Positions 1,497 to 37,700 are shown, numbered from the stretch's first letter. The stretch is 64,000 nucleotides of DNA from an uncultured Candidatus Peribacteria bacterium (GCA_964534565.1 CAZHON010000001.1:390532-454531); one strand, 5' to 3'. Translations and numbers: made by a program. The notes: generated by a model from the letters alone, not told the origin.

Positions 1497-1889
1497 ATGT
1501 TCACGAAACTATTACCTTCTAGCTCTTCTTTAATGCTTACCCGTGCGAGGTCGCTACGTGTACGTCAGGTATTTGTTGAGAGGAGACTTTGGCAACAACT
1601 GAGAGCAAAGCGATTTCATGGAATAAAATTCCGCAGACAAGTTCCGATTGGGCCATATATTGTAGATTTTCTCCAAGTAGATTCGAAGTTAGTCATTGAA
1701 CTCGATGGTAGCTCCCACTGGCAAGTCGGTGCCCAAGAATATGATGCAATTCGAGATGACTATTTACGATGCAAAGGGTTTCGGGTTATCAGATTCCAAA
1801 ATCATGAAGTGATCTTTTCTTTTGAAAATGTACTCAGTCGCATAAAAGCCCTCTCCCTGACCCTCCCCCACAAGGGGAGGGAAGACTGA
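1497..1889 (+). CDS. DUF559 (Vsr/endonuclease-like fold) domain protein
   Basis: 130 aa. 'RQLRAKRFHGIKFRRQVPIGPYIVDFLQVDSKLVIELDGSSHW...DAIRDDYLRCKGFRVIRFQNHEV' is the typical DUF559 core. Ends in TGA. Confidence 0.85.
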   Translation: MFTKLLPSSSSLMLTRARSLRVRQVFVERRLWQQLRAKRFHGIKFRRQVPIGPYIVDFLQVDSKLVIELDGSSHWQVGAQEYDAIRDDYLRCKGFRVIRFQNHEVIFSFENVLSRIKALSLTLPHKGRED

Positions 1890-1906
1890 AAGAGTCTTCC
1901 TTTTTT
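1880..1906 (+). terminator. Rho-independent terminator overlapping the DUF559 stop codon and abutting the convergent ATPase gene end
   Basis: GGAAGACT(1880-1887)-gaaag-AGTCTTCC(1893-1900) followed by TTTTTT(1901-1906). Confidence 0.75.
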
Positions 1907-4800: not shown

Positions 4801-4894
4801 GGCAACATTGTAGCACATTTTGTCCCCTTCTGGAATGGGCTGGATTGGGACTGGCGCACGGACACGAAAAAGTGTATACTGTAAAGATTTGCGC

Positions 4895-6772
4895 GTGACC
4901 TCACGTCCTCATCGGCTTCTCTTGCTCCTCACTGTTCTCATTGCGTTGGGAACAGGCGTTGAGCATTTGATGCTTCCCGCTCAGCTTTCTGACTGTATCG
5001 GAAAGCCCTACGGGACGCCGGGATGTCCCACGAAGCGCACGGAAACAGAAACCATTCGTCCTCCACATTGTGGTGATGGAGTCCTGCAAGCTGAGGAGGG
5101 TGAACAGTGTGATGCCGGTCGCAGCAACGGAGTGAGCAGCTGTACCGACTCTTGTACGCAGCTCTTCTGTGGAGATGAAATTGTCAGCCCTGCAATCGGC
5201 GAAGAATGTGAACCGACGGTGCAGGAGGTGTATGTCCAAGACCCGGTGACCGGAACCCTGACAACGCAGTTGAAATTCATGGAAAAGGCCTGTGGTGTGA
5301 TTTGCACCGTTCCTACCTGCGATGACGCAAGTCACTGCACGGGTGGATGTACACGCCGCTTCCTTCCTTCTTGTGCGACAACGCCAACATTCGGCGGTGT
5401 GACCACGGTTGTGACTTCTTCCACTGCTTCGACTACGAGTTCAAAGTCTTCCGAGGCAGCCGCTCCATCGTCCGCCGCTGCAGCTCCTCCTGTACAGGTA
5501 ATGTTCGTACAGCAGCCAGCCACGACCCCGACACAACCGACTCAACAGCCTACGACGCCCGTTGCTCCGCAGGCTCCTGTTTCTTCGGCCCCTGCAAAAC
5601 CGGTCTGTGGAAACGGCACCCTTGAAGTTGGCGAACAGTGTGACGACGGAAACCATATCGATACCGATACGTGCTCCAACAATTGCACAACGGCACGCTG
5701 CGGAGACGCAGTTGTTCAGTTGTGGGAACAGTGCGATGACGGAAACCAGGTCAACACCGACGCCTGTACGAACACCTGCAAACTTCCTTCTTGTGGCGAT
5801 GGGTTCGTCGGAGTGGGTGAGCAGTGTGACGATGGAAACCAGGTCAACACTGACGCTTGCACCAACCTTTGCAAAACGCCGATCTGCGGTGATGCAATCA
5901 TGCAACCAGGGGAAGAGTGCGACGATGGAAACAGCAATAACGGAGATAACTGTTCCAATGAATGTAAGCACCCACGTTGCGGTGACAATATCGTCCAGCA
6001 AACGGAACAGTGTGATGACGGGAATCAGACCGATACCGACACATGCTCCAACAAATGTACGACCGCTCGTTGCGGAGATAACATTATTCAGTTGTGGGAA
6101 CAGTGTGACGACGGCAACACGAACAATAACGATGGTTGCACAAACACCTGCAAACTCGCTTCCTGCGGTGATGGCATTGTGAACGCCGGCGAGCAGTGTG
6201 ATGACGGCAATTCCTCAAACACGGACGAATGTACGAATGCATGCAAGCTCCCTGTGTGTGGAGACGGCTCCGTACAGAACAGTGAAGAATGTGACGATGG
6301 AAACACTCGCGATGGAGACAACTGCTCCAGCACGTGTAAGTCCCCACTGTGTGGCAACGGAATCAAGGAAGGAAGCGAACAGTGCGACGAAGGTGCCCGC
6401 AACGGTGACCTTCCAAACATTTGCCGCAAGACATGCAAATTGCCTTCCTGCGGAGACGACGTGGTTGATGCAGGCGAACAGTGTGACGGTACGGCCGATT
6501 GCACAACAAGCTGCAAGACGATTGCGGCTGCCTTCCATGAAGCAGCACCAACCGTTCCTGTGACTCCACAGCAGGCAGCAAGTGACAACCGCACGGCATT
6601 CATTGTTGGCGGAGTCTTGATCGCTCTCTCCCTGACTTTCTTCCTTCTCTACAGCGCTCGCACTCGTTTGCGCAAGTTGGTGAGTTTCGGAAGCAAGAGT
6701 GGTACCGCCGGCGGAACAGAAATTGACGATGTGCCTCTCGATGAACTCGAGATGCCATGGCATCAGTGGTAA
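4895..6772 (+). CDS. Type-I membrane-anchored surface protein with Cys-rich 'CGDG..GEQCDDGN..N.D.C...C' repeats (Myxococcus-type cysteine-rich repeat/DUF4215-like)
   Basis: In-frame GTG at 4895 gives the signal-like N-terminus 'VTSRPHRLLLLLTVLIALG' (the ORF track starts at 4820). Two N-terminal plus ten tandem repeats; S/T/A/P linker; C-terminal TM 'AFIVGGVLIALSLTFFLLY' plus a basic/acidic tail. Confidence 0.8.
   Translation: MTSRPHRLLLLLTVLIALGTGVEHLMLPAQLSDCIGKPYGTPGCPTKRTETETIRPPHCGDGVLQAEEGEQCDAGRSNGVSSCTDSCTQLFCGDEIVSPAIGEECEPTVQEVYVQDPVTGTLTTQLKFMEKACGVICTVPTCDDASHCTGGCTRRFLPSCATTPTFGGVTTVVTSSTASTTSSKSSEAAAPSSAAAAPPVQVMFVQQPATTPTQPTQQPTTPVAPQAPVSSAPAKPVCGNGTLEVGEQCDDGNHIDTDTCSNNCTTARCGDAVVQLWEQCDDGNQVNTDACTNTCKLPSCGDGFVGVGEQCDDGNQVNTDACTNLCKTPICGDAIMQPGEECDDGNSNNGDNCSNECKHPRCGDNIVQQTEQCDDGNQTDTDTCSNKCTTARCGDNIIQLWEQCDDGNTNNNDGCTNTCKLASCGDGIVNAGEQCDDGNSSNTDECTNACKLPVCGDGSVQNSEECDDGNTRDGDNCSSTCKSPLCGNGIKEGSEQCDEGARNGDLPNICRKTCKLPSCGDDVVDAGEQCDGTADCTTSCKTIAAAFHEAAPTVPVTPQQAASDNRTAFIVGGVLIALSLTFFLLYSARTRLRKLVSFGSKSGTAGGTEIDDVPLDELEMPWHQW
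5606..6517 (+). repeat. Ten tandem 31-codon (93-bp) coding repeats with a higher-order 4-unit duplication
   Basis: Units start CG(N/D)G/A/N... Units 1-4 pair with units 5-8, e.g. '..VVQLWEQCDDGNQVNTDACTNTCKLPS' with '..IIQLWEQCDDGNTNNNDGCTNTCKLAS'. Confidence 0.9.
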
Positions 6773-16919: not shown

Positions 16920-19900
16920 ATGCCAACACCAGAAACAAACAACGAACAAAAGAAGCAGGCAACTCCCGAAGTCGCACCAAAAATCCAAACGTTGGATGCC
17001 CTTCGTAAGAGTATTGAGGATCAGCAGAAGACAACGCCTGAAAAAAAGATGGAAGAGATCGTTGCCGATAAGTTGAAGGGGCTGGACGAAGCAAGTCGTG
17101 ACTTGATTCATGACGAAACGAAGGCACTTGAAAAGAAGGATGGAGTGCTCGCGGAGAAATCGATTGAGAAAGAGCTCCTCAAGCAGTTGAATGCTGAGAA
17201 ATTGAATGCAGTGAAAAAGCAATTTGAAGACAGTACAAAGAAGCCCGTCGACGCCGAGAAGAAAGGCATGCTCGATCGTGCGGTCACGTCTTTCCAGGAA
17301 GCAACGAAAGGATACATCCCACAAACAACCGATATGTCCAAGTGGACCGACAAAGAAAAAGTAACAATGGCAACGGTCACATTGGGAATCGCAAGCCTCG
17401 CAGCACTTTGGTATTTCAACCGAAAGGGCGACAAATCAGAAGGGGCAGCAGCAGAAGAGAAAGCTGAAAAGAAGAGTGGCTGGAAGAAACTGTTATGGAT
17501 TCCGGTGATTGGTGCTGCACTCTACTACTTCAAGGACTCAGCACTGTTGTCCGGTATTCAAAACAAACTGAAGGGATGGTTCGGAATGGGGAAAGAGAAG
17601 ATCAAAGAAAAAGCAAAAGATGCGAAGGACGCTGCGAAAGATTTGATCAACGGAAAAGGAGAAGAGTATGGGATTTCGAATGAGGCATATGAAGACGCCG
17701 AGAATCAGTACAGAACTCACGGTCTGAACGCGAAAGATAAGATTGCTTCTATTTTTGGTTTGAAACCCGGAGAAACGAATCCGCAGTTTGAAAAATTCAT
17801 GGAGAAAATGAAAAAGCATGATGCAGAAACTTCTGAAGGTATCAATCGCGTTCCGGCGTCCGTTGCTCTTCGTAACTACGAAAGTCAGTTACAAGACGCC
17901 TTAACAGAGATGGAGAGTTGGGCTGAGGGTCATATATTCGAAATCGGAGTAGCAACCCTTCTTGCTGCTCGATTAGGAATTTTGCAAGCAGTTTTAAGAG
18001 GTGCAGGAACCGTTATTTCTAAATCAGCTCAAATTGGAAAGTTAATGCTTCAATGGGGAATTAAGCATCCGTTTAAATCTTTGTTCTTAGCAGGAGGTGC
18101 ATTCATCGCTTTGAAAGGAATTAAAGACAATGTCTCTTTGCCTGAAAACTTACAGCAATTTTCCAAGGCATGTAAAAACAATCAACCAATTGCAAAGGGA
18201 TCTGCTGATCAATATCAGCAAGCATCGCTCATTTCTCTCAAGGGACATATTGAGGCGTTAGGTGAAATTGGAGATGAATGGGGTCCTTGGATTGGTCAGC
18301 AGTTAGAAAATATATTAGGAGAAGTAGGCAATCAATTGCCCGACATTGTTGGACTTACGCCAGAGGAATTGATTCAAAAAAATAATGCAGAAGGTATTGA
18401 TCAATTGCGCAAAGCATTAACAATGGGAATTGAATCAGTTCGAAGAGATACTGAAAAACGCGACAACGGAGACGGAAAAAAATTCGAGAAGGCAATGGAA
18501 TTACTTGATGCATTTGAAATTGCATTCGTGAATGCACGATGCATCGAACCACCTGACAAAGATGAATCAGATGCAGTATTTGCTGAGCTCACAAAGGCAC
18601 TGGAAGAAGTCGGTATTTCAGTTACTGTGAAAGATGGAATCGTAAAATGGGGAACTGCTTTAGGTGAATGGGATCTTTGTATTGATCCTTCGATTAAAGA
18701 TAAAAATGAGCAGAAAAAATTATCTGAAAAAATCCGTGAGAAAGGAGAAAGTTTTGCCACGCATCTTTTATTTAATGCCATTGATCAAGCACGGGAACGC
18801 CAGCAGCAAGGCATGGAAAAGATCCCCGGCAACAGAGCGCTTGCAATGATTATTGGAAACCTCGTTTATATTGTTGAGGATTGGGATATAAAAGAAGCGG
18901 GAGCAAAAACAATAAATTATATTTGTGTCCCTCTGAATCTTTTTACAGACGCAGTGGGGATTGGTCCTGTAGTCGGAAATGATATGGATAAATCAAACAA
19001 TGCCGTTGAATGGGGTACAAATCTCACAACCGGTTTTTTGACAAGTGCTCTCTTTACGATTAATGCCGCGTGGCTTGCTGCGGCAAAACGTCTTGCTATT
19101 GGTGGAGGACCTCTCCACGCAGGGTGGAAGATGCGTGTTGCAATGAATGTTATTCCAGGATTCTCCCAATACACATTCCTTCGCAGTGCTTACGAAGGAG
19201 CGCAAGATTTCAAAATGATTCAAAAATTCGGACCTTTGTGGGGACGACGTTTGAATAATGCCTTAGCCGCAGCTCACATTCGTCCAGAATGGATTGCACT
19301 CGTAGAAACAGGAACAGAAGCTCAGGTTCTAGATGTTGCTAATAAGTCAGGTGCAAAACTAAGTTTGAATGCAGACTTGCCAACAAAACGTGCGCAATTG
19401 AGAAAGTTCCTTCAGGATTCCATGAAGGTTACAGAAAAACGTTTAGCGGATTTCAAGACATATAAAATCTGGAAATGGGGTAAGGCATGGAGAGGTGGAG
19501 AGATTGCATACCAAAAGGAACTGTATGACATGGTTCTGGCTCACTATGGAAATGCGAAAGAAATTTTAAAGGGAAATGTATTCACAATTAAAGATCTTCA
19601 AAAAGCAGGAATGACAGTGGCAAAATTCTTAAAAGATGGAGTTCCAGTAGATGATTTGTTGAAAGCGGGGATTTCATTAGATGATCTCGTCAAAGCAGGT
19701 GCCAAGATCGATGATCTCCTCAAAGCAGGGAAAACACTTCAAGAAATCATTGCTTCCGGTGCCGGCATTGATGATCTCCTTCGTGCAGGTGTAAAGGAAG
19801 CAGACCTCCTCGCTGCCGGTAAAACTCCGGAAGAAATTGCCAAGGCAATGAAGTCGGTGAAAACCAAAGTCGACGTTGCAAAGACTGTCGATGCCGGAGT

Positions 19901-21713
19901 TGATGTTGCAAAGAATCTCGACGAAGTCGAACGACTGCTTGCAAAAGCAGAAGAGCTTAGAAAGGCGGGAAATCTCGTTGAGGCTGAGAAATTGGCCGCA
20001 CAAGCACACGAAGCTGCAGAGGGAACGCATCGTTCCATTCAGGCCGCACGTGCAGGCGGAAAGGTCGTCGCTCCCGGCGAAATCTCTCGTTTCGGAAAAT
20101 GTGTGAAGGGTTTGAAGGTACTGGCAAAGGCATTCGGATGGGCGCTCAGTCTTGTCGATGTCTACTTTGCATGGGACTACCTCTACAACGAACGCCCTGC
20201 GTTGATGGCGCAGATGGAGCGCGAAACCGACAAGTCAAAGAAAGATCTCATCGAAAGACGTATCACATCGAAAGACGTTGCAACCGGAGTGGATATCGTC
20301 GGTGCGGGGTTGTCAGTCAGTCCACTGTGGCCGGCCGGGTTGATTATCATGGTTGGAAATGCAGGCTACAAGCATTCGATCGGTGCAGTGCACGATGCGG
20401 AGGAGTATCTCACGCAAACGGAAAGCGATTTCAAGAAAATGCCATCAGGCAGAATTTTGAATAGCGTCAGTACGACAACGGCATTGACCGGCCGCAGCTG
20501 GACGAGTGACAAGCTTTTCCAGCTGTACGGGGGTAAACAGGAAATCTTGAACGGAAACACTGCCATTCGCAGTATTGGCTATAGAGGTTACTTCTACCAG
20601 TATGCCGGTGAGAATCTTCCTGTCGCCGTTCCCCAGGATCTGTCAGACGATTTGAAATCCAATCCTGATATTAAAAATCTCCTGAAAAATTTCAACGATT
20701 CACAACGTGCGTATTTCATGACTCTGGCGACTTGCTACATCAGTGAAGTGACGAAGGGCCAATACACACTCGTCACTCCAGAAGTTCTTGAACGAGCAAC
20801 ACGCTATGCATCCGGCATTTGTGCCGAACATCGTCGAGCAATTGCAGCCGGCCGCATTGAGAATGGGGAATTGATTCCTGTTGGATTGAATTATCCATAC
20901 CAGACACTCCCTGTAAATTCCGGGGGAGGTCATGGGGACCTCGTCCGCGACATCGATGCAAAAACACACGAGCAATCCAATAGAGATTGGTCTGTCACGA
21001 AGACGCGATTGGAGATGTTGCAAACGGAACCTGAATTGTTCCAGGCAGAATTCGTCTATCGCATGGTCAATCGAGTTCGCCATAACATTTCCTTGGCTGA
21101 CCAAGCCGCACTGAAGTTAGAAGGAGCCTCTGCGACCAACGCGCGTTATGGTTACGCGAAGGCAGTGAGTGAAACACTGCAGCGTGAACTGAATGCATCC
21201 AAAACAACGCCGTTGACCCAAAGTGATTTCGATCGAATCGTGTCCACGTTGCAGGGAATTCTTAGTGAAAGTGCACAGGTGGTCGCCGAACGTGTTGAAG
21301 GCAGCGTCAATGAAAATGATGCCTATACAATTCGCCGAATCGGAGGCAATGATCTTTTGCTCAGCAGCATGGGAATCTACGAATTCATGAAAAATATTCA
21401 GCCCGAAAAGAGCGAGCAGATGTCTGTGAATGAAAAGAGACAGAAACTCGGGGAGCAGTATCTCCATGGTCTCAATGTGAATGACAATGGCAGCTATTTC
21501 ACGAAGCAATATGGCTTTGTTGGGAACAAATTCATGTACATTCAGTTTGATGAGGCCGCTGGAAAATGGATGGCGCAGTTGGGCGGAAGGGACGCGATGA
21601 AAGATCCTTCCACTTGGCATGTCACAAACTGGGGATGGATTCCTGGTGCAGGAGGAGCAGACAAATATAACGACCTCTTGAGGAATTTGGATGCAATCAA
21701 TAAGAAATCCTAA
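16920..21713 (+). CDS. Giant (1597 aa) multi-pass membrane/surface protein of unknown function
   Basis: K/E-rich coiled-coil-like N-terminus. Hydrophobic segments 'VTLGIASLAALWYF', 'LLWIPVIGAALYYF', 'IGVATLLAARLGILQAVL', 'LTTGFLTSALFTINAAWLAAA', 'FGWALSLVDVYFAWDYL', 'LWPAGLIIMVGNAGY'. Decapeptide repeat block. No recognisable catalytic motif. Confidence 0.8.
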   Translation: MPTPETNNEQKKQATPEVAPKIQTLDALRKSIEDQQKTTPEKKMEEIVADKLKGLDEASRDLIHDETKALEKKDGVLAEKSIEKELLKQLNAEKLNAVKKQFEDSTKKPVDAEKKGMLDRAVTSFQEATKGYIPQTTDMSKWTDKEKVTMATVTLGIASLAALWYFNRKGDKSEGAAAEEKAEKKSGWKKLLWIPVIGAALYYFKDSALLSGIQNKLKGWFGMGKEKIKEKAKDAKDAAKDLINGKGEEYGISNEAYEDAENQYRTHGLNAKDKIASIFGLKPGETNPQFEKFMEKMKKHDAETSEGINRVPASVALRNYESQLQDALTEMESWAEGHIFEIGVATLLAARLGILQAVLRGAGTVISKSAQIGKLMLQWGIKHPFKSLFLAGGAFIALKGIKDNVSLPENLQQFSKACKNNQPIAKGSADQYQQASLISLKGHIEALGEIGDEWGPWIGQQLENILGEVGNQLPDIVGLTPEELIQKNNAEGIDQLRKALTMGIESVRRDTEKRDNGDGKKFEKAMELLDAFEIAFVNARCIEPPDKDESDAVFAELTKALEEVGISVTVKDGIVKWGTALGEWDLCIDPSIKDKNEQKKLSEKIREKGESFATHLLFNAIDQARERQQQGMEKIPGNRALAMIIGNLVYIVEDWDIKEAGAKTINYICVPLNLFTDAVGIGPVVGNDMDKSNNAVEWGTNLTTGFLTSALFTINAAWLAAAKRLAIGGGPLHAGWKMRVAMNVIPGFSQYTFLRSAYEGAQDFKMIQKFGPLWGRRLNNALAAAHIRPEWIALVETGTEAQVLDVANKSGAKLSLNADLPTKRAQLRKFLQDSMKVTEKRLADFKTYKIWKWGKAWRGGEIAYQKELYDMVLAHYGNAKEILKGNVFTIKDLQKAGMTVAKFLKDGVPVDDLLKAGISLDDLVKAGAKIDDLLKAGKTLQEIIASGAGIDDLLRAGVKEADLLAAGKTPEEIAKAMKSVKTKVDVAKTVDAGVDVAKNLDEVERLLAKAEELRKAGNLVEAEKLAAQAHEAAEGTHRSIQAARAGGKVVAPGEISRFGKCVKGLKVLAKAFGWALSLVDVYFAWDYLYNERPALMAQMERETDKSKKDLIERRITSKDVATGVDIVGAGLSVSPLWPAGLIIMVGNAGYKHSIGAVHDAEEYLTQTESDFKKMPSGRILNSVSTTTALTGRSWTSDKLFQLYGGKQEILNGNTAIRSIGYRGYFYQYAGENLPVAVPQDLSDDLKSNPDIKNLLKNFNDSQRAYFMTLATCYISEVTKGQYTLVTPEVLERATRYASGICAEHRRAIAAGRIENGELIPVGLNYPYQTLPVNSGGGHGDLVRDIDAKTHEQSNRDWSVTKTRLEMLQTEPELFQAEFVYRMVNRVRHNISLADQAALKLEGASATNARYGYAKAVSETLQRELNASKTTPLTQSDFDRIVSTLQGILSESAQVVAERVEGSVNENDAYTIRRIGGNDLLLSSMGIYEFMKNIQPEKSEQMSVNEKRQKLGEQYLHGLNVNDNGSYFTKQYGFVGNKFMYIQFDEAAGKWMAQLGGRDAMKDPSTWHVTNWGWIPGAGGADKYNDLLRNLDAINKKS
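19587..19850 (+). repeat. About 8-9 tandem 10-codon repeats, consensus xxxDDLLKAG, inside the giant ORF
   Basis: 'IKDLQKAG MTVAKFLKDG VPVDDLLKAG ISLDDLVKAG AKIDDLLKAG KTLQEIIASG AGIDDLLRAG VKEADLLAAG KTPEEIAKAM'. Confidence 0.9.
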
Positions 21714-28030: not shown

Positions 28031-28108
28031 TGGGGCGATCGATGGGACTCGAACCCACGACCCTCTGGACCACAACCAGATGCTCTAACCAACTGAGCTA
28101 CGATCGCC
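28031..28108 (-). tRNA. tRNA-His: tRNA-His (anticodon GUG) with encoded G-1:C73 pair and encoded CCA
   Basis: The reverse complement folds as a cloverleaf: g(-1) GCGATCG ta GCTC agttggtta GAGC a TCTGG ttGTGgt CCAGA gggtc GTGGG ttcgagt CCCAT CGATCGC c cca. Confidence 0.9.
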
Positions 28109-28166: not shown

Positions 28167-30512
28167 TCAGGCCTTTGGAGGCGTATTTGCGTCTCCTTGA
28201 GGCCCAATATTATCGGCGCGGATGAACGCAACGGGCTTATCGTCGACAATGGGAGGAACGGGATTCTGCGGTAGGACAGGCGCTTCCTTCACCGGTGTTG
28301 CAGGCGCAGGAGCTGCAGGCGTCTCAGCAGCGGGCTTGGGAGTTGGCGTTGGTGTCGGTGTCTGCGTTGGAGAAACCGGAGCAGAGGAAGGAGCTGGATT
28401 CGTTGGACTTGCGACAGGAGCAACGGCAGGTGCAGGTGTTGGTTCCACGGTTGGTGCTGCCGGCGTAATTTTTGCAGGTGCTGGAGATGGAGCTGCTACT
28501 GGTGCGCTTGGCTGAGTAGGAGTTGCAGCAGTCGGCGCTTTTGATTCTGCAACTACGGGAGCGGGAGCGATGGGCGTTGCAGCTGGTGTTGGGGTCGGAG
28601 TGCTTTGGACTGGTGCTGCAGGAGCAGACACAATCGGAGCCGCAGCGGCAGGCTTTGGCTCAACTGTTGGAGAGGGACTGACCTTCAGCCAGGACGGTGT
28701 GCTCGAAGCGGCAACAGGGCCCGGAGTAGTTGTCTTCAGCCAGGAAGGAGTGCTTGGGGAAGCAGGCTTTGGTGCAGGTGCTGGAGCAGCGGCAGGCTCA
28801 GGTGCGGCAGGGGTCGGAGCAGGAGCTGGTGCAGGCGTCTGTGGCTTTGGCGGAGTGACCGGCACAGGTGCGGGCTGAGGAACTGGCGTAGGTTTTGCCG
28901 CAACAACAGGAGCTGCCGTCACGGGTGTTGGTGCAGGAGTCGGTTTGGGAGCCGGTGCCGTTGGCTTCGGAGCAGGCGTGGAGAGATCGGGCTTGCCCTG
29001 CAATCCTTGCTTGAGCCAGCTCGGAGCATTCTCTGCCTGAATTGTTGGAGTCGGAGAAGGGACCGTCGTGGTTTGTTTTTCTTCACGCTCTGCAACGGCT
29101 GCAGGAGGTGTTTGTCGAACGACCGGTGCAGCAGCAACCACCGTTGGTGTCACCACTTGTGGTTTTTGCACCAACTTCGCCTCCATTTGCTCAAAGTGTT
29201 TCTGCAACGATGAGCTTTGTTCCGTGCCGCCGGCGCGACGACGGATGCGAGAGAGGAGGAAGACCAAGATCAAGCCTGCAACAATGCATCCCAAGAAAAT
29301 CAAAATGTATCCAATGTAATTTCCGCTCATGAGACCGATGATTTTGTCGGCGATGGCGCTTGTTCCTGCAACCGTACTTGATGCAGCTGAAGAGGCCGAG
29401 GCGACACTCGCGCCAGAGGAGACTGCCCCGGAACCAGTGATGGGAAGATCGTCCGTGACCGTAAGATCTTTGGTCGCTTCATCGATGATCTTTCCAGATG
29501 CCAGATCCTTGACGGTCAAATGAACTGTGAAGGTGCTGCCCGATCCGAATGTGTGACTGGGTTGAGTCGTCAGACTTGTTTCACCGTCGCCGAAATCCCA
29601 CTGATAGAGAAGAGAAGTATCGGGTTCTGCATTCTTTTGAAAGACACTCTTGAATTGATAGGAACGATTTCCCAAGGCGGCAGCTTCGATGGAAAGGACA
29701 CCCTGGAGCGTTCCTTCCTGCTTCGCCGTATTGAACGATGTCACGGTAAACGGTTGTCGGGCGGGAGATCCGTCCGGAAGAACCATCGACACGCGCATGG
29801 ATTTCTTCGTGATCTCGTTTGCAAACCACAAGACGAGCGGATTGCCGTCTGTCTTGAAGAGTGTTCCGTCGTTATCAATATCGTCGTCGGCAATTCCGTT
29901 GCCGTTCGTGTCGAGAGCAGTATCTGTATCGAGCATGATTCCATGCAGTCCCGCCTTGTTCAGACGAAGAACGATCGTATTCTGCCCGTTATCCAAAATT
30001 GCATTGCCGTTCTCATCGAGAGACGGAGTGGTGTGGATGATCGATCCCGACCCGACCGTTCCTTCATTCAACTCCACATCCCCTGGCATACGTGCCTCCA
30101 CCGCGATCGTGAACACCTTTCGAATGCGTGTCAGTTTGTCGCCGGAAGTGATTTCTGTCGTGAGCGTGTAGTTGCCCGGCGTGATGGGACGAGTTTCAAA
30201 GACGGCCGTGCGGTCAGCCTGAAGGAAGTGGCGATCTTTCGTCAAAATCCAGGCGTACGTTGCGTCCTTCAATGTGGTCACCGGCAAGAACCCGATGATT
30301 TCACCAACCTGAATGGTGATCAGGTCCGGGTCGCTGATTGCAGAGGAGACGCTGAACGAAGATGCACTGCTGACGGAACTGACGGTGTCGGTTGTCGGCA
30401 CATCGGGAAGTCCGGCCGAGATTTCTGCCTCCTCTGCGAAGATATGTCCCGATGTTCCCGCCAAGAGAGACAGGATCAAAAGACCGCAGAGAGGGGTGAG
30501 AAATTTCTTCAT
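28167..30512 (-). CDS. Surface protein: signal peptide, beta-rich ectodomain with a PKD-like domain, one TM, long Pro/Ala/Thr-rich tail
   Basis: 'MKKFLTPLCGLLILSLLAGTSG'; PKD-like 'YQWDFGDGETSLTTQPSHTFGSGSTFTVHLTVKD'; TM 'YIGYILIFLGCIVAGLILVFLLS' followed by 'RIRRR'; approximately 360-aa P/A/T tail with three 'PSWLK' motifs. Confidence 0.8.
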   Translation of the reverse strand: MKKFLTPLCGLLILSLLAGTSGHIFAEEAEISAGLPDVPTTDTVSSVSSASSFSVSSAISDPDLITIQVGEIIGFLPVTTLKDATYAWILTKDRHFLQADRTAVFETRPITPGNYTLTTEITSGDKLTRIRKVFTIAVEARMPGDVELNEGTVGSGSIIHTTPSLDENGNAILDNGQNTIVLRLNKAGLHGIMLDTDTALDTNGNGIADDDIDNDGTLFKTDGNPLVLWFANEITKKSMRVSMVLPDGSPARQPFTVTSFNTAKQEGTLQGVLSIEAAALGNRSYQFKSVFQKNAEPDTSLLYQWDFGDGETSLTTQPSHTFGSGSTFTVHLTVKDLASGKIIDEATKDLTVTDDLPITGSGAVSSGASVASASSAASSTVAGTSAIADKIIGLMSGNYIGYILIFLGCIVAGLILVFLLSRIRRRAGGTEQSSSLQKHFEQMEAKLVQKPQVVTPTVVAAAPVVRQTPPAAVAEREEKQTTTVPSPTPTIQAENAPSWLKQGLQGKPDLSTPAPKPTAPAPKPTPAPTPVTAAPVVAAKPTPVPQPAPVPVTPPKPQTPAPAPAPTPAAPEPAAAPAPAPKPASPSTPSWLKTTTPGPVAASSTPSWLKVSPSPTVEPKPAAAAPIVSAPAAPVQSTPTPTPAATPIAPAPVVAESKAPTAATPTQPSAPVAAPSPAPAKITPAAPTVEPTPAPAVAPVASPTNPAPSSAPVSPTQTPTPTPTPKPAAETPAAPAPATPVKEAPVLPQNPVPPIVDDKPVAFIRADNIGPQGDANTPPKA

Positions 30513-31468
30513 ACGTTCGTATTAATGGAAGAACCCAAATTCAAGAAGAACGACACAATCACGCGAGCGAAGACAATGACGAGCAATCCGAGAATTGTAT
30601 AGAGGATGATGTTCTTTGCGCGCTCACGAGAACTCTCGCTTCCAAACCCAACGATCAGGATGATACCTGCGACAATGATGGCAACGACTGCAAACAGTGC
30701 GAGGAAGCCGATCGCGATATCGAGAAGATTGAGGATCGTGGACGTGAAGGTGTTGATTCCGTTCGAGACGTTGATCGCACCTCCACCAAAACCGATCAAT
30801 CCCAAGTTGCACTGTACGGCGCCGCCCGTTCCCGATCCTCCGGAGATATTCGAGACGAATCCAACAATCACCGCTGCGAATGAAATAACAAGAATACCGG
30901 CGATTGTGTAGAGAATGATTCTCTTCGCCGTGTCCTTTGCGCTTTCGCTTCCAAATCCAAGGAGAAGGAAGAAGCCGGCAATGATGATGGCGACCGTTCC
31001 GATCAATGCGACGTATCCCAATGCTGCAATCACAATGCTGCAGATGATATCTGGCAACGTAACGTCGATGGTTCCACGACTGAGACCCATGAATAGTCGA
31101 ACGATTGCTCGTGCGAGGTTGATGATGATGAGACCGACGAGAGTGTAGATGATAATGCGTTTCGCGCGGTCCTTTGCTCCTTCATCTCCAAATCCAAGGA
31201 GAAGGAAGAAGCCTGCGATCACAATTGCGAGCACTGCGAGAATGTTTGCGATGTTCACGAGCGCATTTGTGAGCGACACGATGTAGGTGAAAAGATCTGT
31301 CTGACCTCCACCCAAAAGTTCTCGTTCCGCTTTGCTCAAACCTTCCTGAAACGATCCACCTTGATAGACGGATGCTTCAACAGGAACAGCGTAGGTCATA
31401 CACCAAGCGGCAGTGCATCCAAGGATCACTGCGACAAACACGGAGAGGAGGTGAGAGGATCTCGGCAT
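30509..31468 (-). CDS. Signal-peptide protein built of three tandem VirB2/TrbC-like (T4SS pilin-like) helix-loop-helix modules
   Basis: Three copies of the hydrophobic helix-'GFG(D/S)E(G/S)xK/R(D/E)xAKxII(I/L)YT'-hydrophobic helix module. ATGA overlap with the downstream PKD gene. Confidence 0.6.
   Translation of the reverse strand: MPRSSHLLSVFVAVILGCTAAWCMTYAVPVEASVYQGGSFQEGLSKAERELLGGGQTDLFTYIVSLTNALVNIANILAVLAIVIAGFFLLLGFGDEGAKDRAKRIIIYTLVGLIIINLARAIVRLFMGLSRGTIDVTLPDIICSIVIAALGYVALIGTVAIIIAGFFLLLGFGSESAKDTAKRIILYTIAGILVISFAAVIVGFVSNISGGSGTGGAVQCNLGLIGFGGGAINVSNGINTFTSTILNLLDIAIGFLALFAVVAIIVAGIILIVGFGSESSRERAKNIILYTILGLLVIVFARVIVSFFLNLGSSINTNV
30554..31246 (-). repeat. Three intragenic tandem pilin-like coding modules
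   Basis: Modules 1 and 2 retain an identical 26-nt stretch (30951-30976 = 31188-31213). Module 3 is more diverged. Confidence 0.8.
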
Positions 31469-31515
31469 TTCTTCCCACTATAGCACAGAACGACTGAAAA
31501 CGCTACCCTTCCTTC

Positions 31516-32563: not shown

Positions 32564-33925
32564 ATGTTTCGAATGCAACACACACACCGACTCTACGCAA
32601 CAATACTGTTTCTCTGTATAGCGACGCCCTTTGTGTCGACTGCGACAGACGACACCACTCCACGTGAGCAGGATTTCGTCCTCACTGCGTACTATTCTCC
32701 AAAACCGAATCAGTGTTGCTACGTCACAGGGTCCGAACAATCGGACAAAGACCTGAACGGAAACGGAACGAACGGTGCGGATGGAACGAAGGTCTACCCT
32801 GGCATGATCGCCGCTCCTCCAAGTTACGCATTTGGAACGCGCATTGTGCTTCCTGGACTGGGAATTGGTACCGTGCACGATCGTGGCGGAGCCATTCAAG
32901 AACAAGGGAAAGTTCATCGACTCGATGTGTGGGTGGGAAGCGGTGAAGAAGGATTGGCACGTGCTCTCGCCTTTGGCGTGAAGCATGTGCGCGGAACGAT
33001 CTACCCTGTCGGCTCCAAACAGCCCGCGGAGAAACTGGCTCTCGAAACATTGCCCGCACCGCTGACCAGCTTGTCGCCGTACATGAGTGTGGGGCTGCTT
33101 GATGTGAAAGCACGCTTCGGTGAAAGCGGCCTGGGTATTCGCTTGCTTCAGACAGCACTGAAAAATGGAGGATCGTTTGATCATGCAATTACAGGAACGT
33201 TCGGAGAGGTTACGAAAACGGCACTCGCAGCATTCATCAGCCGCATGAAACTTACCGAACCGACCGATCAATTGACGGAAAAAACAGCGGCGTATTTGCA
33301 GGCGACTGCCGATACGGCAAGTCGCGTTCTCCCCTTCGGTCTCATCGATGCAAAATCTTCCTCAACCGATATTCAAAGTGCAAAGCGTCTGCTTCGCGGA
33401 ATGGATTTGTACAAAGGTCGTACAGACGGTGTCTACAGCGATGATTTGAAAAAGGCGATTACCGCGTTCCAGATTCAGAAAAAATTGATTGCAGATGCAA
33501 ATGAAACAGGTGCCGGTCGTATCGGTCCGAAGACGCATGCCGCACTGGAGCAGGAATGGAAGCTTGTGGTTGTTGCACGTCAGGCACAGAACGTGCTCTT
33601 CATTCACTCTGTACAAATGGCGTTGGAGAAGAAAGGAATGATTCCCCAGTCGAAGATGAAAGTGGGCAGCAACGGAGCAGATGTGAAACGCTTGCAGTCG
33701 TTCCTTGCGAGCAAAGGATTTTTCCCGAAGGACAAGATCAACGGAAACTTTGGCGAGGTGACGAAAGCATCTTTGCTTGCGTATCAAAAAGCTCGTGGTC
33801 TCGTGAAAAACGATAAGGATACGGGCGCTGGAACAGTCGGTCCTTTTACGCTTCAAACGATGAAAACAGAGCTGGTTGCAACGGCAACGAAACGTGTTAA
33901 AGAGCACGGTTGGGACGCGCTCTAA
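32564..33925 (+). CDS. Secreted 3D-domain (MltA/RlpA-like barrel) protein with several peptidoglycan-binding (PG_binding_1-like) repeats
   Basis: 'FVLTAYYSPKPNQ...NGTNGADGTKVYPGMIAAPPSYAFGTRIVLPGLGIGTVHDRGGAI...RLDVWV'. Repeats 'GVYSDDLKKAITAFQ', 'NGNFGEVTKASLLAYQKARGL'. Confidence 0.75.
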   Translation: MFRMQHTHRLYATILFLCIATPFVSTATDDTTPREQDFVLTAYYSPKPNQCCYVTGSEQSDKDLNGNGTNGADGTKVYPGMIAAPPSYAFGTRIVLPGLGIGTVHDRGGAIQEQGKVHRLDVWVGSGEEGLARALAFGVKHVRGTIYPVGSKQPAEKLALETLPAPLTSLSPYMSVGLLDVKARFGESGLGIRLLQTALKNGGSFDHAITGTFGEVTKTALAAFISRMKLTEPTDQLTEKTAAYLQATADTASRVLPFGLIDAKSSSTDIQSAKRLLRGMDLYKGRTDGVYSDDLKKAITAFQIQKKLIADANETGAGRIGPKTHAALEQEWKLVVVARQAQNVLFIHSVQMALEKKGMIPQSKMKVGSNGADVKRLQSFLASKGFFPKDKINGNFGEVTKASLLAYQKARGLVKNDKDTGAGTVGPFTLQTMKTELVATATKRVKEHGWDAL

Positions 33926-33964: not shown

Positions 33965-35017
33965 GTGCGTTTTCTCCTGCTCACCATCGTCTTTCTTTCG
34001 AGTGTTGTCCCTGCGTATGCAAAAGATACGACCGGCATTTCGCGTCGTGACGGATTCATGATGATTTGGCAGAGCATTCTGCGTCCAATCGAAGAGACCA
34101 ATGAAAAACCATTCACCGATGTTCCCGAAGGAAGCCCAAATGCCGATGCGATTACCTATGCGAAATATCGTGGAATCATTGATGACGAAGACAAAGAATT
34201 TCATCCGACGGCACCGCTTACAATGACCGATGCGCTTCTGTGGCTGTTCCGCACCCGCAGTGTTTCCGACATCAAAGAAACGACCGTGAAGGAGTTGCCG
34301 GACATCCTCACGCGCTATCCCATTGTCAATTTAACGGGTCACGAAAGCCAAATTTTGACCCAAGATGATCTTCTGACTCTCATGCGTTCGCTCGATGCGA
34401 AGTTGCGCGATGAGGTGCACGAGATCAGTAACTATTCCGAATTTTTCCAGGGAGCCGGAACGGCGTTCGGAGAAAAATTCAATATGTATGCCATGACTGC
34501 GGCACATCGAACATTCCCTTACAACACACTCGTGAAAGTCACGAATCTCGATACGGGAAAGAGTGTGACTGTGCGCATCAACGATCGTGGCCCCTACGTG
34601 AAGGGCCGTGATATGGATTTAAGTTCAGGAGCATTCGGACAGATTGCAGATCCGGATGCCGGAGTGATTTATCACGCGACGTTCCAGCGACTGGGAGACG
34701 CAACGCTCGCGAACGGTTGTGGGGAATCGACACCCTATCAGCAACGCATCACGAAGGACGTCCATCTTTCGCCCGGCGTTCCCTGGTTCGTCCCACTCGG
34801 AAAAACAGTCTCATGGACAGCCAACGCTCCCTACGTTGTCCTGGGTCAAACCTATCCCGATGGAAACAAGGTGAAGATGCAAAACTGGCTTCTTCCAAAC
34901 GAAACATTCTCGTTTACACCCTCGGTTTCCGGTCAGTATTCGTTCCTGCTGGGGGCCAAAGACGGTCGAAAGCGCGAGCTGACCATGACGGTGGTGGACT
35001 GTCCGACGGCAAATTAG
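33965..35017 (+). CDS. SLH-like module plus RlpA-like double-psi beta-barrel (lytic transglycosylase-like) protein
   Basis: GTG start; signal '[19 protein letters not shown]'; SLH-like '[23 protein letters not shown]'; '[48 protein letters not shown]'. Confidence 0.8.
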
Positions 35018-35090: not shown

Positions 35091-37700
35091 GTGGTCTTCT
35101 TCCTCCGCTTCCTCTTCTGGCCGATTATAGGTGCTCTCACCTTCCTCGTTGGGGCTATTTTCCATTCCAACGTGTGGTCCATTCTGTGGACGTGGTGGTA
35201 TGCCGATCCTTGGAACGGCACACTGACCATTCTCGGAATCTATTTGGGTGCACGTCTTGCGCTCTCGTTGATGCGTGAGGCTTATGAACTTTCTCAGTCG
35301 AGCAAACTCGTCTGCATGAAGGTGTTGCTTCCACGCAGTGATTCCAAGTTGGATCAAGAGAAGCGCACGGAGAAAGATTTCAAAGAGAAGATTGCGATTA
35401 TGGAACAGTTGTATCGCGGTTTGTGGGAAGTGCGAAACCTGACCTTCTGGCAGTTCCTCCATTTCTGGATTTTCCGTTACATGACGATCAGTTTCGAAAT
35501 GATCGCCGAGAAAAACGAATTCATGTTCTACGTGGTGACGGATCCAAAATACGTTTCCATCATTGAGAAGCAGATCACGTCGTACTACTCCGATGCCGAA
35601 GTGACGATTCAGAAGAAACCTGAAATTTGGGATCCGGGTCAAAAGCTTGTTGCCTACGCAATGACGCTCAAGAAGAAATACTTCTTCCCCATCCGCTACT
35701 ACGAGCAGATGCAGGATGATCCTCTCAATGAACTGAGCAACGTGCTCAGCAAATTGGACGAAGGGGAGAAGGCAGCGATTCAGCTTGTGATCAAGCCGTC
35801 GTTCTCCAACAAGTGGGGACCACGTGCAAAGGACTATGCATCGTCCAAATTTAAGGGAAAGAAAGAAGGATGGTTCGCGCACATTCCCGTACTCTCGACG
35901 ATCGTGACTATTTTCAACGGAGTCGCAAGCGGCGGAAAGACGCTCGCTCCGGGTGCCTCCAGCGGCGACAGTTTCGTCCGTATGATTCAGCCGGAGGAAG
36001 AACTCTACAAGCGCATGGGAGAGAAGGCCGGCGGAAGCTGGTTCCACTGTTCGATTCGTGTGATGGGTTCTGCAAAGACCTGGAATCGCGCACTGGATAT
36101 TACGAACAACATGCAGATCGCGTTCAACACATTCCGCGATACGTACGGCAACTCCTTCGTGAACCGCCGCATGTTCGTCGACTTCTTCCCGCTCGCATGG
36201 AACGCACCGCTCATGCACTTCCTTTGGAAGCACCGCATGAACGGAACAGGCCACAAGGATTGTTTGCTCGTCGAAAAGGAATTGGCCGGTCTGTACCACT
36301 TCCCGGACAGCCGCTACAACAAAATTCCGCTCATCCAGTGGATTGCGTACCGTGTGCTTCCTCCTCCACCAGATATTCCAAAGGAGGGAATTGTTCTCGG
36401 TATCAACCATTACCGCGCCGTGGATACGGAGATTCGTTTCCTCGAGAAAGATCGTTCACGTCACCAGTATCTGATTGGAAAATCCGGTTGCGGAAAATCC
36501 TCTCTCCTCTCGTGGCAAATCCGTCAGGATATCGCGAATGGAAAGGGACTCTGCGTGGTGGATCCTCACGGTGACCTCATCGAAGATGCGCTTGCACACG
36601 TTCCAAAGGAGCGTGCGAAGGACATCATCGTCTTTGACCCTGCCGATACGGAACGCCCGATGGGTATGAACATGCTGGAAGCGAAGACATCTGAAGAGAA
36701 GGATCGCGCCTCTCTCGATGCGATGGAAATCTTCATCAAGATGTACGGAAACGAAATCTTCGGACCGCGCATTCAGCACTACTTCCGCAACGGTTGTCTC
36801 ACGCTCATGGATGACGAAGAGGAAGGAGCAACATTGATCGATGTGCCACGTCTGTTCGTCGATGACGAGTTCCAGCGCTACAAGGTCAGCAAGTGCAAGA
36901 ACGTCGTCGTGCGCAGCTTCTGGGAAAATGAAATTGCGAAGACGGGTGCACGCGAGAAGGAAGAAATGATCCCGTACTTCTCCGCAAAATTCGGACCGTT
37001 CATCACGAACACCACCATCCGCAATATCATCGGTCAGCCGAAGAGCGCCTTCAATATCCGCGAAGTGATGGATGAAGGAAAGGTTCTGCTCGTGAACCTC
37101 AGCAAGGGAAAGATCGGAGACATTAACGCGCAGCTGCTCGGTCTCATCTTCGTGAACAAGATCAACATGGCCGCCATGGCTCGCGCAGATGTTCCACAGG
37201 AACAGCGCCGCCGTTTCTACCTGTACGTCGATGAGTTCCAGAACTTCATTACGGACGCATTCGCGTCAATTCTCTCCGAAGCACGTAAGTATGAACTTGG
37301 TCTCATCATGGCTCACCAGTACATCTCGCAGCTCACGGCAAAGTCCGGGGAGGGTGGAGGCCAGGACAACAAAGTCCGCGATGCCGTGTTCGGTAACGTT
37401 GGAACCATCCTCAGCTTCAAGATCGGTGCGGAAGACGCTGAATATATGGCAAAGGAATTCGCGCCAACGCTCAGTGAACAGGATGTGATCGGAATCCCGA
37501 ACTTCAACTGTTACTGCAAGCTGAACATCAACAACACAAGCTCACGTCCGTTCTCCATGGGAACGATCTACGATGAGTCCAAGCGTAACGAGAAGCTCTC
37601 CGGCCTCATTAAGGAATACAGCCGTATGAAGTATGGTCGTAAGAAGGTCTTCGTCGACCAGGAAATCGAGGATCGCATTGGAATTAACCGTCCGCAGTAA
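35091..37700 (+). CDS. TraD/VirD4-family (T4SS coupling-protein-like) membrane P-loop ATPase, paralogue 2
   Basis: 869 aa. N-terminal TMs; Walker A 'LIGKSGCGKSS'; 'VDPHGDLIEDA'; Walker B 'FYLYVDEFQNF'; 'LIMAHQYISQL'. Long blocks shared with ORF 1905-4406 ('EIFGPRIQ.YFRNGCLTLM', 'VRSFWEN..AKTG.REK.EMIPYF'). Confidence 0.75.
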   Translation: MVFFLRFLFWPIIGALTFLVGAIFHSNVWSILWTWWYADPWNGTLTILGIYLGARLALSLMREAYELSQSSKLVCMKVLLPRSDSKLDQEKRTEKDFKEKIAIMEQLYRGLWEVRNLTFWQFLHFWIFRYMTISFEMIAEKNEFMFYVVTDPKYVSIIEKQITSYYSDAEVTIQKKPEIWDPGQKLVAYAMTLKKKYFFPIRYYEQMQDDPLNELSNVLSKLDEGEKAAIQLVIKPSFSNKWGPRAKDYASSKFKGKKEGWFAHIPVLSTIVTIFNGVASGGKTLAPGASSGDSFVRMIQPEEELYKRMGEKAGGSWFHCSIRVMGSAKTWNRALDITNNMQIAFNTFRDTYGNSFVNRRMFVDFFPLAWNAPLMHFLWKHRMNGTGHKDCLLVEKELAGLYHFPDSRYNKIPLIQWIAYRVLPPPPDIPKEGIVLGINHYRAVDTEIRFLEKDRSRHQYLIGKSGCGKSSLLSWQIRQDIANGKGLCVVDPHGDLIEDALAHVPKERAKDIIVFDPADTERPMGMNMLEAKTSEEKDRASLDAMEIFIKMYGNEIFGPRIQHYFRNGCLTLMDDEEEGATLIDVPRLFVDDEFQRYKVSKCKNVVVRSFWENEIAKTGAREKEEMIPYFSAKFGPFITNTTIRNIIGQPKSAFNIREVMDEGKVLLVNLSKGKIGDINAQLLGLIFVNKINMAAMARADVPQEQRRRFYLYVDEFQNFITDAFASILSEARKYELGLIMAHQYISQLTAKSGEGGGQDNKVRDAVFGNVGTILSFKIGAEDAEYMAKEFAPTLSEQDVIGIPNFNCYCKLNINNTSSRPFSMGTIYDESKRNEKLSGLIKEYSRMKYGRKKVFVDQEIEDRIGINRPQ

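Follow-up and report, generated by a model that had tools for sequence, protein, structure and literature searches.

We analysed a 64,000-nucleotide stretch of chromosome (the window) from an uncultured, ultra-small Candidatus Peribacteria bacterium (GCA_964534565.1, CAZHON010000001.1:390532-454531). The ORF list and translation placed an open reading frame (ORF) of 319 amino acids (aa) plus stop codon at positions 30509..31468 on the minus strand, where an initial annotation of the window had reported it. That annotation had described a signal-like start followed by three helix-loop-helix modules with the architecture of the conjugative pilins TrbC and VirB2. The ORF, referred to here as the pilin ORF, comprises the following features.

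31373..31468, minus strand: predicted Sec signal peptide, aa 1-32 (MPRSSH / LLSVFVAVILGCTAAWC / MTYAVPVEA), from hydropathy and orthologue alignment
31304..31372, minus strand: mature N-terminal segment, aa 33-55 (SVYQGGSFQEGLSKAERELLGGG), predicted extracellular, with Y35, G37, G43 and A47 conserved in the alignment
31079..31303, minus strand: pilin module 1, aa 56-130, a long helix, the loop GDEGAKDRAKR and a second long helix (PF18895, AlphaFold2)
30833..31078, minus strand: linker 1 and pilin module 2, aa 131-212, with the loop GSESAKDTAKR (PF18895; 98 bits with the family module hidden Markov model)
30773..30832, minus strand: core of linker 2, aa 213-232, Gly/Ser/Thr-rich and uncharged, with the conserved Cys220 (codon 30809-30811)
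30512..30772, minus strand: pilin module 3, aa 233-319, with the loop GSESSRERAKN, of the terminal module type (PF18895, module tree)

Kyte-Doolittle hydropathy analysis revealed a hydrophobic N-terminus (aa 4-30) followed by six long hydrophobic segments that form three pairs. The three module strings quoted in the initial annotation were located within these pairs, at aa 77-123, 158-202 and 260-305. For pairwise comparison the full modules were taken as aa 56-130, 131-212 and 233-319, and BLASTP aligned them at 43-53% identity over 67-72 aa, with E-values of 1.5e-22, 1.5e-21 and 2.2e-25. A hidden Markov model (HMM) built from modules of the family detected exactly three domains in the pilin ORF, at 96-98 bits each, and no further domain outside it in a six-frame translation of the 64-kb window. 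The modules are clearly homologous. Alignment of the family revealed an invariant core in every module, AG-x7-G-x-[DE]-x2-[KR]-x2-A-x2-I-x2-Y.

In every orthologue the N-terminus is likewise hydrophobic and ends in A-x-A. The public NCBI protein for this gene (P0001, 296 aa) begins at Met24 and omits the signal peptide (window 31399-31468, aa 1-23). Orthologues all start with a signal peptide that ends in A-x-A and is followed by VY-x-GGS, and on these grounds we favour the upstream ATG, which gives the 319-aa form, with cleavage after aa 32, probably at VEA/SVYQGG (aa 32/33). The gene call of a Logan assembly is likewise the 319-aa form, in agreement with the upstream start. A lipoprotein signal (ILG/C18) was considered and dropped, as the Cys is not conserved among orthologues. 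In single-module orthologues the mature N-terminal segment is also present behind the signal peptide.

Pfam scans matched the whole protein to two pilin families, each over three stretches: PF18895 (T4SS_pilin; E 7.5e-21, 74.4 bits, cut-off 26.6) and PF04956 (TrbC/VirB2; E 3e-7, 31.0 bits, cut-off 27.9). The HMM comparison recommended in the initial annotation therefore places both profiles above their cut-offs, which supports the proposed TrbC/VirB2 architecture. Scanned singly against PF18895, the three modules scored 40.8, 25.9 and 40.8 bits over profile positions 4/5-71 of 71, module 2 alone (positions 5-71) falling marginally below the cut-off. Against PF04956 the single modules scored 24.7, 15.9 and 18.7 bits, none of them above the cut-off, and multi-module relatives matched the TrbC/VirB2 profile at E 1e-19 to 1e-42. 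In Pfam and NCBIfam scans of the pilin ORF no transporter or other polytopic family reached threshold; the sub-threshold matches were TMEM164, YrvL, TrbL, MatE and MroQ. The combination that the initial annotation had considered damaging, absence of a pilin match together with the fold or context of a known polytopic family, did not occur, and the neighbourhood has the flavour of a type IV secretion system (T4SS). The pilin ORF departs from the single-module form of PF18895 in being 319 aa long, with three modules behind one signal peptide, while single-module orthologues of 118-142 aa occur at the same locus and among the relatives found by profile search. Collectively, these results suggest, with high confidence, that the ORF is a genuine fused triple VirB2-like pilin. 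As for all VirB2-like pilins from Candidate Phyla Radiation (CPR) bacteria, its function is one that we infer.

Structure prediction, also advised by the initial annotation, agreed with this layout. AlphaFold2 (AF2) modelled module 1, with 32 aligned modules, as a two-helix hairpin (helices 2-37 and 42-73) at a predicted local distance difference test score (pLDDT) of 91.6. The whole chain, with a 10-sequence alignment, was modelled as three hairpins at a pLDDT of 63 and a predicted template modelling score of 0.47. Residues 210-239, which span linker 2, were disordered (pLDDT <50). A Foldseek search of the whole-chain model against the PDB returned 14-3-3 proteins and other generic helical proteins, with a best E of 0.55.

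The identical 960-nt ORF is present in an independent Logan assembly, SRR14271372, which was retrieved through the protein encoded by the neighbouring PKD gene. Seven other proteins of ~300 aa (P0002-P0008) are 50-57% identical to the pilin ORF and have the same three modules. To place the modules relative to each other, a neighbour-joining tree was built from the modules of the three-module orthologues and of other subfamilies. Modules 1, 2 and 3 of the three-module orthologues each formed a separate clade. Since the modules cluster by position, the triplication is older than the split between these organisms, which have maintained the three-module form. Among the other subfamilies, P0011 and P0012 have three modules, P0013 has two, and P0009 and P0010 have five; the P0009-P0013 subfamilies have expanded independently. 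The most conserved module type is the terminal one in all fused subfamilies, and in the tree the terminal modules fall on one side together with the single-module orthologues.

The age of the triplication bears on a short tract shared by modules 1 and 2, which the initial annotation had reported as 26 identical nucleotides and had taken as evidence of duplication. The identity is true and reaches 27 nt, at the following positions.

30950..30976, no strand assigned: 27-nt tract in module 2, an exact match of nine identical codons
31187..31213, no strand assigned: partner 27-nt tract in module 1, the same exact match

The run encodes nine consecutive residues, GFFLLLGFG (aa 86-94 in module 1). 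Outside it, the codon is shared at only 10 of the 23 positions where modules 1 and 2 have identical residues. Orthologues read FY where both modules of the window read FF, which fits conversion between the modules. Because the triplication predates the split of orthologues that are ~50% identical, we read the tract as a probable small patch of gene conversion and not as what is left of the duplication.

The window is ordinary chromosome, with gyrB, hisS, tRNA-His, leuS, dnaG, rpoD, der, tsf and ftsK among its genes. A scan of GTDB species genomes yielded 38 loci, of which nearly all carry the label Candidatus Peribacteria or Peregrinibacteria. In a conserved order, one side has YceG, a VirD4-like ATPase, DPBB, peptidoglycan-binding and M24 genes, and the other has the pilin and PKD protein genes, then hisS and gyrB. 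The main neighbours in the window are listed below.

28167..30512, minus strand: PKD gene, 781 aa, encoding a signal peptide, a PKD ectodomain, one transmembrane (TM) helix and a long Pro/Ala/Thr-rich tail
32564..33925, plus strand: secreted protein with three PG_binding_1 repeats, 453 aa (E 5.9e-22, three stretches; synteny)
33965..35017, plus strand: RlpA-type DPBB lytic transglycosylase with an SLH domain, 350 aa (DPBB_1 E 2.3e-23, SLH E 1.2e-4)
35091..37700, plus strand: VirD4/TraG-type coupling-protein-like ATPase, 869 aa (Pfam and synteny)

Pilin ORF and PKD gene overlap by 4 nt (ATGA), the stop codon of the former with the ATG of the latter, and in most Peribacteria loci the pilin is likewise followed next by the PKD gene. 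Its product matched PKD_4 (E 2.6e-10) and PKD (E 3.7e-8). From this arrangement the PKD protein is a likely partner of the pilin. A homologue search with the PKD protein returned a few Peribacteria orthologues and otherwise generic PKD matches, and gave no functional clue. Three [AT]PSWLK motifs occur in the tail of ~370 aa that follows the TM helix. This tail would lie in the cytoplasm by the positive-inside rule (RIRRR follows the TM helix), which is odd for a low-complexity region.

The genes of the M24 aminopeptidase, PG_binding_1, DPBB and VirD4-like proteins lie upstream of the pilin and are divergently transcribed. The 869-aa ATPase, 3.6 kb from the pilin, exceeded the cut-offs of three models, TrwB_AAD_bind at 36.1 bits, T4SS-DNA_transf at 34.4 bits and TraG-D_C at 27.4 bits, and its matches to the NCBIfam VirD4-like and TraD models fell below cut-off. 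It occupies the same position, at 61-73% identity, in at least 20 Peribacteria loci. The 350-aa DPBB protein matched TIGR00413 (rlpA) at 95.6 bits, above cut-off, and its synteny is conserved. It is a candidate cell-wall-opening enzyme and may have a role in a T4SS.

Several further observations were made in the window. A second VirD4/TraG-like ATPase (833 aa, 1905-4406, minus strand) is a paralogue of the 869-aa protein. Both have a long N-terminal extension, and Peribacteria orthologues of the 869-aa ATPase match the 833-aa paralogue at only ~29-44% identity. The gene of the paralogue adjoins those of a sortase-domain protein (12-1361) and of a 650-aa protein with eight DUF4215/Cys-rich repeats (4820-6772). 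Patescibacteria genomes carry about two VirD4-like genes each, mostly distant from virB4 (PMC12102498), and the two ATPases of the window fit this number. A 1597-aa ORF (16920-21713, plus strand) matched only PF25296 decapeptide repeats, below cut-off, and the DotG/IcmE type IVB repeat NF033900, far below. The sole tRNA of the 64-kb window, tRNA-His (GTG; 28031-28107, minus strand), separates hisS from the end of the PKD gene. Between the divergent pilin and M24 peptidase genes there are 47 bp (31469-31515). This region has a TATAGT 8 nt upstream of the ATG of the pilin, and a very short leader or a leaderless transcript may result; we draw no claim from this motif. Promoter and terminator consensus scans stayed at or below shuffle expectation and returned no promoter in the 47-bp region.

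The content of the pilin slot varies between loci. Most Peribacteria loci have one module in this position. L010, L019 and L031 have two or three separate genes, all of which encode signal peptides of their own. Two-module fusions are found in L007, L008, L009 and L017, and three-module fusions in L001, L003 and L004. Longer fusions have four modules (L006), five (L005) or ten (L002). The ten-module pilin is encoded in the orthologous slot of a Candidatus Peribacteria metagenome-assembled genome (MAG; CAZXIV010000025.1; L002 positions 1686-4121), and the near identity of its modules 5-8 indicates that they were amplified or homogenised within the gene very recently. In fused genes the internal modules lack a signal peptide, and the linkers resemble the mature N-terminal segment, as in L007, where IFGPVPSIG..GSDIR compares with FYHGPGIV..GGDIR. 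These two properties suggest that the fusions would have arisen by intragenic duplication of the mature unit and not by read-through between full genes.

To determine how far such fusions extend, a profile of the single module was searched against 1.84 billion cluster representatives, and 25,425 proteins matched at E <=1e-3. Most of the best 150 of these have 2-16 matched stretches; since the ranking favours multi-module proteins, this indicates that fusions are numerous and diverse and does not measure their frequency. Examples among the best 150 are P0127 (1775 aa, 16 stretches), P0040 (11), P0053 and P0084 (10 each), P0033 (8), and P0018 and P0019 (7 each). Pfam rescans of selected relatives confirmed several T4SS_pilin and TrbC stretches. 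In the source databases the relatives are named only 'hypothetical' or 'uncharacterized', and named sources include Peregrinibacteria (TSD00203.1) and Andersenbacteria (PIT98131.1). P0053 is a ten-module protein of a Candidatus Altiarchaeales archaeon (OYT27652.1). Since at least one ten-module protein is archaeal, the occurrence of concatenated VirB2-like pilins extends beyond CPR bacteria. In a Saccharibacteria locus (L025), single pilin genes form a classical array near a gene of the PrgI/VirB3 family, and a two-module fusion lies within this array.

The survey of module numbers suggested by the initial annotation thus found relatives with 1, 2, 3, 4, 5, 7, 10, 11 and 16 modules. The fusion is not unique to this genome and is one case of a large class filed as 'hypothetical protein'. 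Matching of module number to pilus symmetry, with five modules forming one layer of a pentameric pilus, was rejected as a rule because 2, 3, 4, 7, 10, 11 and 16 modules also occur. In the proteins with 10-16 modules (P0040, P0053, P0084 and P0127), almost all linkers contain a pair of Cys at regular spacing. P0086, a 1369-aa protein from an IMG/NCBI metagenome, has two T4SS_pilin modules and five PKD domains in one chain. As a Rosetta-stone fusion that joins both partners, P0086 supports a functional link between pilin and PKD protein in the window.

Hydropathy, Lys/Arg counts and the AF2 hairpins are consistent with the pilin layout of a signal peptide, two helices and a basic loop, with both ends predicted outside. 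The module loops carry 3-4 Lys/Arg and linker 2 and the C-terminal tail none. By the positive-inside rule and the topology of VirB2/TrbC, the loops would be cytoplasmic, and the N-terminus (after removal of the signal peptide), both linkers and the C-terminus would be outside. Because each unit passes the membrane twice, units can be strung head to tail with the topology of each unchanged. In solved conjugative pili both termini of the subunit are at the outer surface, and in cyclic VirB2/TrbC they are even joined covalently. With both ends on the outer surface of the pilus, short external linkers could bridge neighbouring protomers.

We propose that the pilin ORF is a head-to-tail concatenation of three complete mature pilin units behind one Sec signal peptide, which would have arisen by intragenic duplication of the mature unit. 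The three units would stay covalently linked, and a Patescibacteria T4SS would use them as three neighbouring protomers of a VirB2-like filament or conduit that are already joined into one string. Such a string would fix both the 1:1:1 ratio and the order of three diverged pilin variants. The translationally coupled PKD membrane protein would act as a partner, possibly as an adhesin or anchor. Overall, we consider it reasonably probable that the protein is a covalent triple pilin, arranged head to tail with the pilin topology kept, that acts as one unit. For the narrower claim that it stays uncleaved and polymerises, the sequence evidence leaves the chances about even.

The case for a covalent string draws on the linkers. 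Across orthologues they span ~6 to ~45 residues and share no cleavage motif; linker 2 differs in length between orthologues, with its Cys retained throughout the close subfamily. The sole plausible signal-peptidase position after module 1 reads ELP/K in P0004 and GLK/D in P0007, both disfavoured at -1. Module 2 is flanked by Cys143, at the start of its first helix (or by a Cys three positions before it), and by Cys220; both are predicted to lie outside and are conserved across the close subfamily. The conservation of these Cys and the recurrence of Cys pairs in the 10-16-module proteins suggest that the linkers are structured, retained elements. A covalent string of three protomers is favoured because the linkers vary without a motif, the -1 residues are unfavourable in two orthologues and the Cys are conserved.

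Several points weigh against this proposal. RP4 TrbC and Ti VirB2 undergo several proteolytic steps as well as cyclisation. The second helix of each module is predicted to be oriented like a signal peptide and may permit cleavage, and A-x-A/G-like residues directly follow the second helix in several relatives, for example FFAGAG and FFASAG in L002. The confidence of the whole-chain AF2 model suffices for secondary structure and not for the packing between modules. Foldseek of the module 1 model against the PDB found generic hairpins only, at E ~1 or higher, with no pilin in the top 50, and no PDB sequence was matched in a profile search. Since Foldseek cannot discriminate a two-helix hairpin, the fold adds no independent support for a pilin, and with the PDB profile search empty, family membership rests on the HMMs. 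Among the large ORFs of the 64-kb window we detected no VirB4, VirB3, VirB6 or VirB8 homologue, so the link to a T4SS machine is drawn from pilin homology, the nearby VirD4-like ATPase and other CPR loci. VirD4-like genes in Patescibacteria may also be exapted for other functions (PMC12102498), and a review credits these bacteria only with the 'potential to elaborate conjugative pili' (PMC12857230). No PF18895 filament has been visualised or reported in the Patescibacteria T4SS literature that we searched.

If the linkers were cut, the ORF would be a true polyprotein, from which signal peptidase I or a dedicated protease releases three ~8-10 kDa pilins after membrane insertion. The products would then act like those of a three-gene array, and the fusion would only save signal peptides and ensure equal synthesis. 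The topology allows for this, as the second helix would run from in to out like a signal peptide and place the start of the linker at the outer face of the membrane. Small residues follow the second helix (GLS/R here; in the ten-module L002 FFAGGG besides the two motifs given above), known TrbC/VirB2 maturation involves several cleavages, and some genomes have separate genes with signal peptides at the locus, which implies that separate pilins are functional. Against it stand the lack of a cleavage motif conserved over linkers or orthologues and the disfavoured -1 residues of P0004 and P0007. Moreover, the helices of ~33-35 residues are far longer than the h-region of a signal peptide, the last module ends with the same small-residue motif though nothing there needs cutting, and the conserved Cys suggest that the linkers are kept. 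On balance we consider release of three separate pilins unlikely.

It is also conceivable that the protein remains in the membrane as a six-helix platform, channel lining or anchor, built from pilin-derived hairpins and working with the co-translated PKD protein. The tight ATGA coupling and conserved adjacency to the PKD membrane protein are in line with this, as are the pilin-PKD fusion in P0086 and the absence of VirB4, VirB6 and VirB3 from the large ORFs of the window, and the membrane extraction of 10-16-module fusions is hard to picture. Against this, each module retains a complete pilin signature with no module-specific loss, and the slot is shared with single-module orthologues. The fused form in L025 lies inside a classical Saccharibacteria T4SS pilin array by PrgI/VirB3, and Pfam, NCBIfam and Foldseek revealed no likeness to any known polytopic family. 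We regard a resident six-helix protein as improbable.

A third possibility is that hairpins repeat in a membrane protein unrelated to pilins, for instance a small transporter or an ATP-synthase c-subunit (proteolipid) in multiplied form, and that the likeness to a pilin lies in hydrophobic composition only. The top Foldseek matches of the single module were to E. coli ATP synthase subunit c (TM-score 0.62-0.69, E ~1), there were weak, sub-threshold Pfam matches to TMEM164, YrvL, TrbL and MatE, and multiplied c-subunit hairpins have precedent. In contrast, there was no PF00137 match at E <=1, whereas PF18895 scored 48 bits over its cut-off and PF04956 was also above its own; relatives match TrbC down to E 1e-42. 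The second helices (RIIIYTLVGLIIINLARAIV and alike) have no Asp or Glu and so no mid-membrane carboxylate, and the Foldseek E-values are non-significant. The HMM results effectively refute this explanation, which we judge very improbable. That sequencing, assembly or frameshift error merged three neighbouring pilin genes, which are common as tandem separate genes in Patescibacteria and present at this locus in L010, L019 and L031, can be given almost no weight, as the same ORF occurs in the assembly of an independent read set (SRR14271372), fused orthologues occur in many independent MAGs, and the internal modules lack the signal peptides of genuinely separate genes.

Returning to the covalent triple pilin, we tentatively extend the proposal to a widespread undescribed class of 'poly-pilins' of 2-16 units in Patescibacteria and some Altiarchaeales. 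These would be used uncleaved in T4SS filaments or conduits, with a multi-module asymmetric unit and linker disulfides, and in Peribacteria with a PKD partner. If so, the assembly machine would extract and polymerise multi-hairpin strings. Conjugative pili are polymers of hairpin pilins and lipid whose lattices tolerate different helical symmetries (PMC9905601). Natural head-to-tail fusions would act as structural constraints on which neighbouring subunit ends must be close, and their existence implies that a set order of diverged pilin variants is either tolerated or favoured. A question for pilus biogenesis also follows, namely whether multi-hairpin units can be extracted from the membrane. 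The Peribacteria slot, with 1, 2, 3, 4, 5 or 10 fused modules or separate genes, is a natural comparison series, and the PKD protein, coupled to the pilin by operon and by fusion, becomes a candidate adhesin or partner. In annotation it matters how many domains each protein has, as censuses that count genes miss fused arrays.

Among known systems, the closest analogy to the concatenation is found in the proteolipid (c/K) subunits of V-/A-type ATPases, which occur in duplicated, triplicated and 13-hairpin forms, for example in Methanocaldococcus jannaschii and Methanopyrus kandleri. Both cases string together a homo-oligomerising two-pass hairpin with its topology preserved, and the single module resembles subunit c at a TM-score of ~0.6-0.7. 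The pilin ORF has no PF00137 match and no ion-binding carboxylate, which indicates convergence and not homology. The c-subunits form closed rings of fixed size, whereas the module numbers of the pilins (2-16) have no obvious symmetry. The pilin-like proteins Mbov_0395/MMCAP2_0565 of integrative and conjugative elements (ICEs) in Mycoplasma (NF045849) matched at E 2.7e-7 over three stretches, with 30.2 bits against a cut-off of 40 bits. They share a small two-helix, conjugation-associated type in wall-less or monoderm bacteria; in contrast to the pilin ORF, the Mycoplasma family is single-module and ICE-encoded.

TrbC of RP4, VirB2 of Ti and TraA of F are single-module pilins of ~70-120 aa encoded in T4SS operons of mobile elements of diderm bacteria, and some are cyclised head to tail. 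The pilin ORF shares with them the PF04956 match, the signal peptide and two long hydrophobic helices around a basic loop. Unlike them, it is chromosomal and three-module, in a monoderm-like CPR host, with no relaxase or VirB4 nearby.

VirB2-like pilins of Patescibacteria are encoded in the cluster of the one genetically tested T4SS of this group, which epibiotic growth requires, and in Southlakia the pilins are an essential component (Wang et al. 2023, PMC10633639). This paper, a second one (PMC12102498) and a review (PMC12857230) regard them as an unusual part of the Patescibacteria T4SS. Arrays of 2-11 separate pilin genes have been described (Quinonero-Coronel et al. 2025, PMC12102498). 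The literature that we searched does not describe VirB2/TrbC pilins that are fused or have tandem or multiple domains, which is no proof that they have never been described; with separate arrays only on record there, the statement in the initial annotation that no triple-module pilin is described agrees with this literature. The pilin family and the arrays of separate genes are thus known, and the in-frame fusions, already latent in domain databases, appear to be new. The pilin ORF shares with the array pilins the PF18895 family, the phylum, the unit of signal peptide and helix-loop-helix, and the tendency to multiply and diverge, its modules being 43-53% identical to each other. In contrast to the arrays, the copies in the window are joined in frame into one polypeptide with one signal peptide, and their locus lies not beside virB4 but in a conserved, Peribacteria-specific cluster that also encodes a VirD4-like ATPase, enzymes acting on peptidoglycan and a PKD protein.

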